Shown here one piece after another: positions 29,881-58,304 of a DNA stretch of 64,000 nt (position 1 is its first letter; every line of letters starts with the position of its first letter). Position numbers and translations under genes: made by a program. The DNA is from Malacoraja senta (lineage: Eukaryota): NCBI GenBank assembly GCA_038087875.1, contig CM075994.1, positions 9,178,001 to 9,242,000 of the forward strand, written 5' to 3'. The notes below the pieces were generated by a model that saw only the letters and a list, made by a program, of their open reading frames with translations, had not been told where the DNA came from and did no database searches.

Positions 29881-32800
29881 GTAAGAGACGATACTGCAGC
29901 ATGTAATAATACAATTAAATTTGCGTAATATCTTGCTTTATGGGAATTTGTGGCTTGAAGACAGTGGTGTATCTAGGCGTGAAAGAGGTGAAGATATACC
30001 GGAGATCCGCTATCCCAACAGTAAGTAAGATGGTTGCTCTAGATTTAAGGGCCCTGTCCCACTAGGCCGTCATTTGCGCGCCATTTACGCGACCTACAAA
30101 AATGTGGTCGTTGCGTTGTGATGCACGGGTAGCGTGTGGGTAGAGCGGGGACGGGCGCATGGAGAGGCGTGGAGCTGCGTGCGGTATCGCGCCGTGCTCC
30201 AGGATTTCGTGCTGCACGAAATCCTGGCGCGCCACCTGCGTGACGTATCGCGTACGCACGCTGACGTATTGGGTACGCACGCTGACGCATTGGTGTCTCG
30301 CGTGGTTACGTCACCGTGCGTAACCATGCGTCGCTGCTCACCGCTGGGTATTCTAATGGCGTCGCGCGCACCAGATGGCATGATGACGCGTGATTTGCGC
30401 GCGTAATGACGCGTCGACCTATTTTACATATGACGCGTAAATGAGGCGCAAATGACGGCCAAGTGGAACAGGCCCTTAAGACTTTAGAGATGTAGCGTGG
30501 AAACGCCCTCCGGCCCACAAGACTCCATGCCAATCAGTGATCACCCGATACACCAGCGACATACACGGCATGATTAGTAAGTTTGCAGATGACTCTAAAG
30601 TGGGCGGCATCACAGACAGCGAAGATGGTCGTCAATAATTGCAGCTAGATCGTGTGGGCAGGTGGGCTGAAGAATGGTTCATGGAGTATAATACAGATAA
30701 GTGCAATGTGCTGCATTATGGGAACTCAAACCAGGGCAGGACCTGCACAGTGAATGGCAGGGCTCTGGGGAATGTAGAGCAAAGGTACCTAGGAGTGCAG
30801 GGACATAGTTCCTTGAAAATGGCATCACGGGTGGTCAAGAGGACTGTTGGCACATTGGCCTTCATCAGTCAGCGTATTGATATAGAAGTAGGGAGGTCAT
30901 ATGGACAATAGGTGCAAAGAATCTCACTGTGCCTAGTCACAAGTGACAATAAAGTATTCCTATTCCTAAAAGGGGATTAGACAATAAATGATAGTTGCAG
31001 AAGTAGGCCATCCGGCCCTTCGAGCCAGCACCGCCATTCAATGTGATCATGGCTGACCATCCCTAATCAGTACCCCGTTCCTGCCTTCTCCCCATATCCC
31101 CTGACTCCGCTATCTTTAAGAGCCCTATCTAGCTCTCGCTTGAAAGTATCCAGAGAACCGGCCTCCACTGCCCTCTGAGGCAGGGAATTCCACACTCACA
31201 ACTCTCTTAGAAAACGTGTTTCCTCGTCTCCGTTCTAAACGGCTTACCACTTATTCTTAAACTGTGTGGCCCCTGATTCTGGACTCCCCCAACTATAGTT
31301 TGTATGTTTACAAGAATGATCCCAGGAATGAGTGGGTTAGCATATGATGAGCGTTTGACAGCACTGGGCCTCTACTTGCTGGAGTTTAGAAGGTTGAGGG
31401 GGGGACCTCATTGAAACGTACAGAATAATGAAAGGTGTAGAGAGAGTAAAAAGTTCAGGAGAGTCTAGGACCAGAGGACATAGCCTCAGAATTAAAGGGC
31501 GCTCTTTTAGGAAGGAGGTGAGGAGGAACTTTTTTCGTCAGAGGGTAGTTAATATGTGGAACTCATTGCCACAGAAGGCTGTGGAGGCCAAGTCATTGGA
31601 TATTTCTAAGGCACAGATAGACAAGTTCTTGATTAGAACGGGTGTCGAGGGTTATGGGGGGGGGAAGGCAGGGAAATGGGATTAGGATGCAGAGATAGAT
31701 ACATAGAAAATAGGTGCAGGAGTAGGCCATTCGGCCCTTCGAGCCTGCACCGCCATTCAATATGATCATGGCTGATCATCCAACTCAGTATCCCGTACCT
31801 GCCTTCTCTCCATACCCCCTGATCCCCTTAGCCAAAAGGGCCACATCTAACTCCCTCTTGAATATAGCCAATGAACTGGCCTCAACTACCCTCTGTAGCA
31901 GAGAGTTCCAGAGATTCACCACTCTCTGTGTGAAAAAGTTTTTCCTCATGTCGGTCTTAAAGGATTTCCCCCTTATCCTTAAGCTGTGACCCTTGTCCTG
32001 GACTTCCCCACATCGGGAACAATCTTCCTGCATCTAGCCTGTCCAACCCCATAAGAATTTTGTACGTTTCTATAAGATCCCTCTCAATCTCCTAAATTCT
32101 AGCGAGTATAAGCCAAGTCTATCCAGTCTTTCTTCATATGAAAGTCCTGACATCCCAGGAATCAGTCTGGTGAACCTTCTCTGCACTCCCTCTATGGCTA
32201 TAATGTCCTTCCTCAGATTTGGAGACCAAAACTGTACGCAATACTCCAGGTGTGGTCTCACCAAGACCTTGTACAACTGCAGTAGAACCTCCCTGCTCCT
32301 ATACTCAAATCCTCTTGCTATGAAAGCCAACATACCATTCGCTTTCTTCACTGCCTGCTGCACTGCATGCCTACTTTCAATGACTGGTGTACCATGACAC
32401 CCAGGTCTCGATGCATCTCCCCATTTCCTAATCGGCCACCATTTAGATAATAGTCTGCCTTCCCGTTTTTGCCACCAAAGTGGATAACCTCACATTTATC
32501 CACATTATACTGCATCTGCCAAACATTTGCCCACTCACCCAGCCTATCCAAGTCACCTTGCAGTCTCCTAGCATCCTCCTCACAGCTAACACTGCCCCCC
32601 AGCTTAGTGTCATCCGCAAACTTGGAGATGTTGCTTTCAATTCCCTCATCCAGATCATTAATATAAATTGTAAATAGCTGGGGTCCCAGCACTGAGCCTT
32701 GCGGTACCCCACTAGTCACTGCCTGCCATTGTGAAAAGGACCCGTTTACTCCTGCTCTTTGCTTCCTGTTTGCCAGCCAGTTCTCTATCCACATCAATAC

Positions 32801-35800
32801 TGAACCCCCAATACCGTGAATTAAGTTTGTATCCTAATCTCTTATGTGGTACCTTGTCGAAAGCCTTCTGAAAGTCCAGATACAACACATCCACTGGTTC
32901 TCCCTATCAACTCTACTAGTTACATCCTCGAAAAATTCTATAAGATTCGTCAGACATGATTTACCTTTCGTAAATCCATGCTGACTTTGTCCAATGATTT
33001 CACCACTTTCCAAATGTGCTGCTATCCCATCTTTAATAACTGACTCTAGCAGTTTCCCCACTACCGATGTTAGACTAACTGGTCTGTAATTCCCCGTTTT
33101 CTCTCTCCCTCCCTTCTTAAAAAGTGGGGTTACGTTTGCTACCCTCCAATCCTCAGGAACTACTCCAGAATCTAAACAGTTTAGAAAAATTATCACTAAT
33201 GCATCCACTATTTCTGGAGCTACTTCCTTAAGTACTCTGGGATGCAACCTATCTGGCCCTGGTGATTTATCGGCCTTTAATCCATTCAATTTACCCAACA
33301 CCACTTCCCGACTAACCTGATTTCACTCAGTTCCTCCATCTCCTTTGATCCGCGCCCCCCTGCTATTTCCGGCAGATTATTTATGTCTTCCTTATTGAAG
33401 ACGGAACCAAAGTAGTTATTCAATTGGGCGCCATATCCTTGTTCCCCATGATCAATTCACCTGTTTCTGACTGCAAGGGACCTACATTTGTTTTAAACTA
33501 ATCTCTTTCTCTTCACATATCTATAAAAACTTTTGCAGTCAGTTTTTATGTTCCCTGCCAGTTTCCTTTCATAATCTATTTTCCCTTTCCTAATTAAGCC
33601 CTTTGTCCTCCTCTGCTGGTCTCTGAATTTCTCCCAGTCCTCTGGTATGCTGCTTTTCTGGCTAATTTGTACGCATCATCTTTTGCTTTGATACTATCCC
33701 TGATTTCCCTTGTTATCCACGGATGCACTACCTTCCCTGATTTATTCTTTTGCCAAACTGGGATGAACAATTTTTGTAGTTCATCCATGCAGTCTTTAAA
33801 TGCCTTCCATTGCATATCCACCGTCAATCCTTTTAGAACTAATTGCCAGTCAATCTTGGCCAATTCACGTCTCATACCCTCAAAAGTTACCTTTCTTTAA
33901 GTTCAGAACCGTTGTTTCTGAATTAACAATATCACTCTCCATCCTAATGAAGAACTCAACCATATTATGGTCACTCTTGCCCCAAGGGGCACGCACAACA
34001 AGACTGCTAACTAACCCTTCCTCATTACTCAATACCCAGTCTAGAATAGCCTGCTCTCACGTTGGTTCCTCTACATGTTGGTTTAGATAACTATCCCGCA
34101 TACATTCCAAGAAATCCTCTTCCTCAGCACCCCTGCCATGATTGAATGGTGGAGTGGCCTCGATGGGCCGAATGGCCTAATTCTATTTCTATAAGTAGTA
34201 GCTCTACTCAATAACCAAAAATCTGTAGCCTCCTTTTGCTCTGGTATTTTATTTAATTCAAATGTTTAATCGATAATGTTTTGCAGTTGAGGAAGCACAA
34301 TCTGCCACAGGCAATGATGGTGCAATTCTACACGGCCATCGTAGAGTCTGTTCTCACCTTCTCCATCATGGTCTGGTTTGGCTCAGCCACCAAGCACGAC
34401 ACCTGGAGACTGCAGCGAATCGTCCGATCAGCAGAGAAGGGTATTGGCTGCAACCTTCCCTCCATTGATGAACTGTACACTGCAAGGGCCAGGAAGCAAG
34501 CGGGCAAGATCACCTCTGACCCCTCTCACCCTGGCCACAAACTCTTTGATTCACTTCCCTCTGGAAGGCAACTCCGGACTGTCAAAGCTGCCACGGCCAG
34601 ACATAAAAACAGTTTTTATCCACGAGTAGTAGCTCTACTCAATAACCAAAAATCTGTAGCCTCCCTTTGATCTGGTATTTTGTTGGTTCACATGCTTGAT
34701 CAATGGTATTTTATCATTAATGTTTTATTATTATTAATGTTTAGTGTTTTCTGAGTCATTCATAACATCACTGTATGTCATGTTGTCACATGCGGGCGGA
34801 GCACGAAGGCAAATTCCTTGTATGTGAATATTTGGCCGATAAACTTATTCATTCATAAACGTATTAATTAATTAATTCATTCATTCATAACTTGGAAACT
34901 TGTGAACTAAAGCACGTTCTCCTATGTTAACGAACAGGAGGTAGCCTGAAGTGCTATGAGAATAGCATAGCCCCTGTGCACTGCAAAATGAAGGAGGTGA
35001 CCTGTGAGAGTAAGGATCGATGCTTTAAGAGGGTTGGTAAAATAGGTAAGTACAAACCACCTAGGTTTTACCTTCAAAATTCGAACATAAATTGATGGAG
35101 TACATGAAACCTTCGTTATAACGGACCATAGTGGGGGGGGGGAGGAATGGTGTTAGCCCCTGGCGGTGAAGTTCACAGAAACATAGAAAATAGACATGGA
35201 AAATAGGTGTATGAGCAGGCCATTCAGCCCTTCGAGCCAGCACCGCCATTCTTTATGATCATGGCTGATCATCTAAAATCAATAGACAATAGGTGCAGGA
35301 TCAGGCCATTTGGCCCTTCGAGCCAGCACCGCCATTCAATATGATCATGGCTAATCATCTAAAATCAATAGACAATAGGTGCAGGAGTAGGCCATTCGGC
35401 CCTTCGAGCCAGCACCGCCATTCAATGTGATCATGGCTGATCATCCCCAATCAGTACCCCGTTCCTGCCTTATCCCCTGACTCCGCTATCTTTAATTCCC
35501 TATCTAGCTCTCTCTTGAAAGTATCCAGACAACCGGCCTCCACCGCCCTCTGAGGCAGAGAATTCCACAGACTCCAGAATCAGTACCCTATTCTGGCTTT
35601 TTCCCCATATCCCTTGATTCTGCTAGCCCAAAGAGCTAGATCTAACTCTCTCTTGATAACATCCAGTGAATTGGCCTCCAATGCCTTCTGTGCCATCATC
35701 TCAGTCCTAAATGGCCTACCCCTTATTTTTAAACTGCGTGACCTCTGGTTCTGGATTCCCCCAACATCGGGAAAAATTTTCCCAGCATCTAGCCTGTCCA

Positions 35801-58072: not shown

Positions 58073-58304
58073 TCATGACTACTGTAAACCCTCGTTATAA
58101 TGGAACATCGTGGAAGGGGAATGGTGCCTCTTATTGCCAGTTGTCTGCGACAACTGAGTACGGTATTATCGTGTAAGAAGGAACTGCAGATGCTGGTTTA
58201 AACCTAAGGTAGACACAAAATGCTGGAGTAACTCAGCGGGTCAGGCAGCATCTCTGGAGAGAAGGAATGGGTGACGTTTCGGGTCGAGACCCTTCTTCAC
58301 ACTA

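Follow-up and report, generated by a model that had tools for sequence, protein, structure and literature searches.

Islands of recent identity and more deeply diverged finger exons in a tandem pair of Ly6/uPAR-like genes of Malacoraja senta

A stretch of 64,000 nucleotides (nt) of Malacoraja senta (contig CM075994.1, positions 9,178,001 to 9,242,000; hereafter the window, numbered from its first letter) carries two tandem genes, B and C, each predicted to encode a small surface protein with a signal peptide, one LU domain and a glycosylphosphatidylinositol (GPI) anchor signal. The sequence is repeat-rich vertebrate DNA, and its content of CR1 and SINE (short interspersed nuclear element) repeats suits a cartilaginous fish. 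Alignment of the two copies reveals three tiers of divergence. The usual state of the pair is a difference of about 18%: the non-coding background differs at 204 of 1155 sites (18%, Kimura two-parameter distance 0.20), with no significant unevenness among its 11 segments (chi-square p=0.09), and the signal-peptide exon matches it (9/49). Above it stand the exon parts encoding the fingers of the LU domain, with 69 of 218 sites differing (32%), and below it two short tracts at 4–5% divergence, one containing a CR1 fossil and its junction in intron 1, the other exon 3 from codon 90 onwards. Because these recent tracts cover only 508 of 1914 aligned columns (386 + 122), the pattern is one of islands of identity, not of a homogenised locus with spared fingers. 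The coding parts outside the tracts are:

29832..29880, plus strand: gene B coding exon 1, signal peptide; 49 nt, ATG start, GT donor, hydrophobic, followed by a phase-1 intron; 9/49 differ from C
34938..35045, plus strand: gene B exon 2, LU loop I and the start of loop II; 108 nt, AG/GT ends, 34/108 differ from C
39454..39563, plus strand: gene B exon 3, finger part, to codon 89 (whole exon 39454-39653); 35/110 differ from C
49545..49593, plus strand: gene C coding exon 1, signal peptide
51880..51987, plus strand: gene C exon 2; 108 nt
57870..57979, plus strand: gene C exon 3, finger part (whole exon 57870-58072, stop at 58072)

The original prediction, made from hand counts, had proposed patchy gene conversion that spares the binding surface, with or without diversifying selection. 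Its counts are reproduced by alignment. Exon 2 differs at 34 of 108 positions, and the CR1 fossil, given as about 10 in 260, shows 8 substitutions and two one-base gaps in 260 columns (30570-30828 versus 50208-50466; 12/259 if scored ungapped across the one-base shift). Identity in exon 3 jumps at 39564/57980, with 4 substitutions and one 3-nt indel in the 90 nt to the stop, compared with 35/110 before the jump (Fisher p=5e-7). The other flanks are more diverged, as described (41745-41936 versus 59154-59346, 37/191), and synonymous changes are frequent in the fingers (11 of 39 same-residue codons). Uniform divergence, named there as one outcome that would refute the idea, fails a permutation test on 1557 non-coding columns.

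B and C are intact three-exon genes with GT-AG introns, both in phase 1, and open frames of 118 amino acids (B) and 119 amino acids (C) on coding exons of 49/108/200 and 49/108/203 nt. One contig of run X7 links the end of a B-like exon 2 to exon 3; the run is marked 'RNA? (probably DNA)' and this single contig is weak transcript evidence. Ly6/uPAR genes are described as having three coding exons, phase-1 introns and a Cys-Cys-x4-Cys-Asn end (PMC4839075; PMC8417595). Both genes follow this plan, with a signal-peptide exon, a mature domain spread over two exons and the GPI signal in the third, and both carry the C-terminal motif (Cys 87, 88 and 93, Asn 94) with identical cysteine spacing. The family hallmark of ten cysteines, beginning with Leu-x-Cys-x-x-Cys, is not found: each mature domain has nine, the second LU cysteine being replaced by Asn25 in exon 2 of both genes while its usual partner Cys32 is retained, and one cysteine is probably left unpaired. 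The mature domains are basic (net +7 and +8) and contain no N-glycan sequon, and hydropathy peaks at both ends of each protein (2.5–2.9) and nowhere internally (under 1.0). Because of the nine cysteines, B and C are best read from their predicted proteins as LU-like variants with a putative GPI signal and not as canonical members, although family members with fewer than ten cysteines are reported (PMC4839075).

The first island of identity lies in intron 1:

30017..30828, plus strand: high-identity tract 1 in B, consisting of the intron 1 junction, a small repeat fragment and the 5' part of a dead CR1; an element found in B alone interrupts it
30049..30475, no strand assigned: non-autonomous DNA element lying within tract 1 of B and absent from C; it has terminal inverted repeats and is bordered by TTAA
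30829..30902, plus strand: continuation of the same CR1 at background divergence; 11/74 versus 12/259 before an 8-nt indel, p=0.007
49740..50093, no strand assigned: C-only insertion flanked by 10-nt direct repeats; where it ends on the right, tract 1 begins
50094..50466, plus strand: high-identity tract 1 in C, pairing with 30017..30828

The best low-divergence run among the 1557 non-coding columns (30001-30832) differs at 20 of 386 columns and beats all 3000 shuffles (p<0.001). The two CR1 fossils share an in-frame stop, a 6-nt deletion and the preceding junction, and are 38–42% diverged from four other CR1 copies in the window. They therefore descend from one ancestral insertion that was already dead, and two independent recent insertions were rejected on the same grounds. 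The run of identity is longer than chance predicts, occupies a collinear paralogous position and has sharp edges, as an interlocus conversion tract should. Since the element is dead, identity drops to background inside the CR1 itself and no shuffle matches the run, tract 1 is very probably the product of gene conversion; constraint on an exapted repeat, a less likely reading, would not predict tract edges at indels. If C was the donor, the B-only TTAA element would be younger than the conversion.

In the finger exons it is the synonymous divergence that stands out. Counting yields a non-synonymous divergence (dN) of 0.32, a synonymous divergence (dS) of 0.79 and a ratio of the two (omega) of 0.40 (bootstrap 0.18–0.78), and likelihood yields dN 0.34–0.36, dS 0.62–0.69 and omega 0.52–0.55, with omega=1 not rejected (p=0.06–0.07). 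Finger dS is thus about three times the non-coding background, and exon 2 exceeds its flanks (p=0.02). Deeper synonymous divergence in functional exons is the published signature of selection resisting conversion (PMC3924837; PMC2588116). That the fingers of B and C were protected from earlier conversion is a serious possibility to which we give slightly less than even chances. Positive selection, and with it the diversifying selection or arms race suggested earlier, is not demonstrated, because omega is 0.40 by counting and 0.52–0.55 by likelihood, which does not reject omega=1. A scan also returned a high-divergence segment at 39459-39740 (p=0.006), which was discarded; once the tail is cut out, this segment joins a badly aligned repeat to the finger of exon 3.

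The strongest competing account, rather unlikely in our judgement, holds that a single duplication now at about 20% divergence was followed by the two tracts while the fingers simply evolved faster, whether constraint on them was relaxed or positive selection acted in episodes, and that multi-hit codons and coding-site mutation rates inflated the synonymous counts, so that nothing was spared. The evenness of the background fits this account, as do a proportion of non-synonymous differences in the fingers above background (0.26 versus 0.18, p=0.014) and an omega of 1.7–1.9 when dS is fixed at 0.21. That fixed-dS model is nevertheless rejected under three codon-frequency models (p about 1e-4), and an elevation is also seen at two-fold codons encoding the same residue, where multiple hits pose no problem (8 of 24 sites differ, 9–10% expected, p=0.001–0.002). 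The excess also persists outside CpG (62/202 in the fingers versus 167/1081 in the background), for which reason CpG decay was rejected as its cause.

Contigs of relatives bear on the same question; they stem from 4 of 24 runs and one 431-nt stretch (39330-39760), and all figures refer to the contigs and variants listed for them. Compared with B, the relatives show 1 and 0 listed synonymous changes on about 26 sites of exon 3, and 5 and 4 changes on 107 nt of intron. Exon 3 synonymous sites are therefore no faster than intron among B-like sequences. Of the listed letters at which the B-like fingers of runs X2 and X3 depart from B, most alter the amino acid (5 of 6 and 5 of 5), as faster fingers would predict. 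Several observations weigh against protected fingers. Four-fold sites are not elevated (3/13, p=0.41), the exon 3 finger does not significantly exceed its own 5' intron flank (35/110 versus 21/96, p=0.12), the background, built from segments still alignable, may be biased low, and the orthologue synonymous counts are small (p=0.16 and 0.07) and come from two species that are not independent. The finger peak is not sharp, and fingers already divergent at duplication predict the same pattern.

Within 39509-39563 of the X2 fingers, the C-like sequence has 14 other letters relative to B where the window's C has 15, and the B-like sequence shows 3 listed changes relative to the window's B. The X2 C-like finger looks nearer to the window's C than the B-like finger is to B, which hints weakly at faster evolution of B. 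Codon 89 encodes Lys in both C-types and Gly, Val or Ala in B-types.

The second island occupies the end of exon 3:

39564..39685, plus strand: high-identity tract 2 in B, running from codon 90 across the last LU cysteine and the GPI signal to the stop, with about 30 nt of 3' flank; 6/122 differ, p=0.022 after removal of tract 1 from the permutation
57980..58104, plus strand: high-identity tract 2 in C, codon 90 to stop and 3' flank, pairing with 39564..39685

Tract 2 begins directly after a three-base difference at codon 89, four residues before the LU core ends, and its identity continues about 30 nt beyond the stop. A graph of 31-letter words would branch where two fingers enter one tail. 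The X1 contig 39330-39593 matches B without a difference (0/264) across this junction and ends 30 nt beyond it. In run X2, from another organism, two contigs end at 39593, one of them B-like (depth 66.4, a different letter at 12 of 245 positions) and the other C-like (depth 74, the C letter at 8/8 listed sites), and a single tail contig of depth 125.3 starts at 39564. The expected tail depth is about 72 if the tails differ as in the window, about 120 with one difference and 140 if they are identical, so that the near-double depth corresponds to 0–1 differences in 120 nt versus 7 in 123 in the window (p=0.014–0.066). One tail change, at 39598, is seen in X2 and X3 and sits in the double-depth X2 contig, where depth cannot separate 0 from 1 difference. 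Collectively, the X2 contigs and depths show that B and C are both older than the split from this organism, that the tail border lies at the same base there as in the window, and that the X2 tails are more alike than the window's.

Should only the CR1 tract be converted, the tails would be alike because purifying selection maintains the GPI signal and the motif of the last LU cysteine. This reading is unlikely, though a model that gives the tail background dS and an omega of 0.17 is not rejected and the tail is slow between relatives too. Near-double tail depth in X2 speaks against it, and identity passes the stop codon into a repeat end. Tight constraint is further disfavoured because the relatives' tail changes are mostly non-synonymous (4 of 5 distinct substitutions change the amino acid, and there is also an indel). 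Conversion of the tail has its own difficulties. Tail dS (0.08–0.10) is not significantly below the background of 0.21 (p=0.13–0.21), and the paralogue-versus-orthologue depth test gives p=0.35. B differs from the relatives at 1/90, 2/90 and 3/90 sites in the tail and at 6/110, 5/110 and 10/110 in the fingers, each contrast being non-significant. The X3 tail contig starts at the same base as that of X2 with a near single-copy depth of 40.2, X1 has no tail contig and a hole at 39594-39650, and, as contigs drop variants, one tail contig need not mean identical tails. On balance, we consider gene conversion the probable origin of the tail tract.

An improbable alternative for the fingers is that they were already divergent when the tandem formed, either as long-balanced alleles fixed side by side or as exons imported from a third paralogue. 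It would cover the even flanks and the deeper fingers without a conversion sweep over all flanks. The window nevertheless offers no donor and no third close copy of B or C, and X2 has one C-like contig at single-copy depth. A third Ly6-like gene, D, located by its exons 2 and 3 (minus strand, 62380-62273 and about 61611-61435), has a 108-nt exon 2 like that of B and C, which shares 8 of 35 residues with B and 12 of 35 with C, compared with 20 of 35 between B and C. D carries the second LU cysteine in the register of Asn25, and its exon 3 ends in Cys-Cys...Cys-Asn and a hydrophobic tail, weakly matching the Pfam profiles CD59 (E=0.0038) and UPAR_LY6 (E=0.019), both below the curated cut-off. 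That the tracts are assembly errors (collapse or a mis-joined consensus) is very improbable, and the finding can be taken as genuine: the 431-nt stretch is covered by no single piece and X1 has its hole, yet the copies differ by 4–5% inside the tracts, contigs break at the same base in three organisms, and collapse is unlikely because the X1 run identical to B crosses the tail junction.

The duplicated units extend well beyond what can be aligned, from about 18.4 to 41.9 kb for B (23.6 kb) and from 45.6 to 59.3 kb for C (13.7 kb), with edges as follows:

18376..20488, plus strand: upstream edge of the B unit, a GC-rich minisatellite, a 5-nt array and unique flank; the C unit has its counterpart at 45648-48361
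41745..41936, plus strand: downstream edge of the B unit; matched by 59154-59346, 37/191 differing, which is background divergence

A sensitive search of the units for weakly conserved collinear non-repeat sequence returned no block at 60–70% identity besides the known ones. The minisatellites at the unit starts (18600-20030 and 45840-48020) are rich in CACGTG words and lead into a five-base array of 1–1.3 kb, whose repeat unit has diverged between the copies; the region is possibly a 5' regulatory region or a non-coding exon. In both genes, exon 2 and exon 3 are each followed by ends of one small, high-copy DNA element (35107-35130, 39665-39755, 52050-52070 and 58083-58162), both insertions therefore being older than the duplication or copied later, and the same element supplies part of the 3' flank directly past the stop codons. 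Elsewhere, the segments 1-780 and 2118-2790 are presumably pieces of a non-LTR (long terminal repeat) retroelement 3' region split by a CR1 insertion, and a 2-kb stretch in intron 2 of C (52430-54402), single-copy within the window, resembles what we take to be a minus-strand LINE (long interspersed nuclear element) fragment.

The explanation we favour, and hold with better than even confidence, combines old tandem duplicates, two recent conversion tracts and an older divergence of the fingers. B and C are old duplicates of a gene with a single LU domain and a GPI anchor signal, and both copies pre-date the split from at least one related species. Copy-specific insertions have broken up most of each unit, leaving only the short stretches that make up the 1914 columns able to pair. 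Non-allelic gene conversion then probably overwrote, in recent time, some 370 nt of intron 1 with the dead CR1 in it and some 120 nt that begin at codon 90 and take in the GPI signal; the pattern is observed in both places, and the tracts end at heterologies (an insertion edge, indels and the three-base difference at codon 89). For the fingers, the corresponding step, to which we assign not quite even odds, is that an earlier homogenisation lasted in the flanks but not across the loops, B-type and C-type surfaces both being retained by selection. The result would be a pair of surface proteins that share an anchor signal but present different binding faces. Of the original prediction, patchy conversion thus finds strong support for the CR1 tract and moderate support for the tail. 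The sparing of the binding surface agrees with the threefold finger dS, and sits poorly with the small share of columns in recent tracts, with a signal exon and all other flanks that were likewise not recently converted, and with the exon 3 comparison to its flank.

A bolder version, which we consider quite improbable, would make B and C a co-retained recognition pair, in which the free loop-I cysteine gives disulfide dimers, possibly B-C heterodimers, recurrent conversion keeps the anchor signal identical up to a fixed codon 89/90 border in several species, and selection blocks tracts from entering the fingers. If true, a vertebrate Ly6 cluster would hold a GPI signal under concerted evolution, with a breakpoint that is selected and common to several species. 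Dimerisation through Cys32 is speculative, and a free cysteine need not mean a working dimer, because GPIHBP1 mutants that have lost LU disulfides form disulfide-linked dimers that are non-functional (PMC9457329).

The locus is a compact example of mosaic paralogues with an internal control, one dead retroelement of which half is converted, and with a breakpoint also present in related species. It cautions against using the GPI tail to date or assign Ly6 paralogues, and against relying on pairwise dN/dS, which may miss selection where the flanks have been reset by conversion. Were the fingers indeed protected, the residues that differ would outline the functional surface of these two uncharacterised proteins. 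A literature search by title and abstract start, with subscription papers mostly outside its scope, found no paper on conversion in Ly6 clusters or on this pair. The mechanism itself is already known, and B and C are a new example of it.

In architecture, the pair resembles single-domain GPI-anchored Ly6/uPAR genes of the CD59/LY6 type, whose three coding exons (signal; LU start; LU end with GPI signal) are separated by phase-1 introns and whose products start with Leu-x-Cys and end with Cys-Cys-x4-Cys-Asn, with paralogues clustered (PMC4839075; PMC8417595); B and C differ in having nine mature cysteines instead of ten, the second being Asn. In its divergence profile, it recalls the peak-of-divergence model of red/green opsin exon 5 and of RHCE/RHD, where divergence including that at synonymous sites is highest in functional exons and lower in the flanks, and where paralogues resemble each other within species in the converted parts (PMC3924837; PMC2588116). 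In the opsins, introns are kept nearly identical by ongoing conversion, whereas the flanks of B and C are mostly 18% diverged with two short recent islands; because the peak stands on this old background, the peak test is weaker here than for the opsins. The paired receptors CD300A and CD300C are likewise tandem surface-receptor paralogues with conversion confined to part of the gene (PMC12447643). There, the ectodomain is homogenised and signalling differs; B and C present the mirror image, with a homogenised anchor and differing ectodomains.

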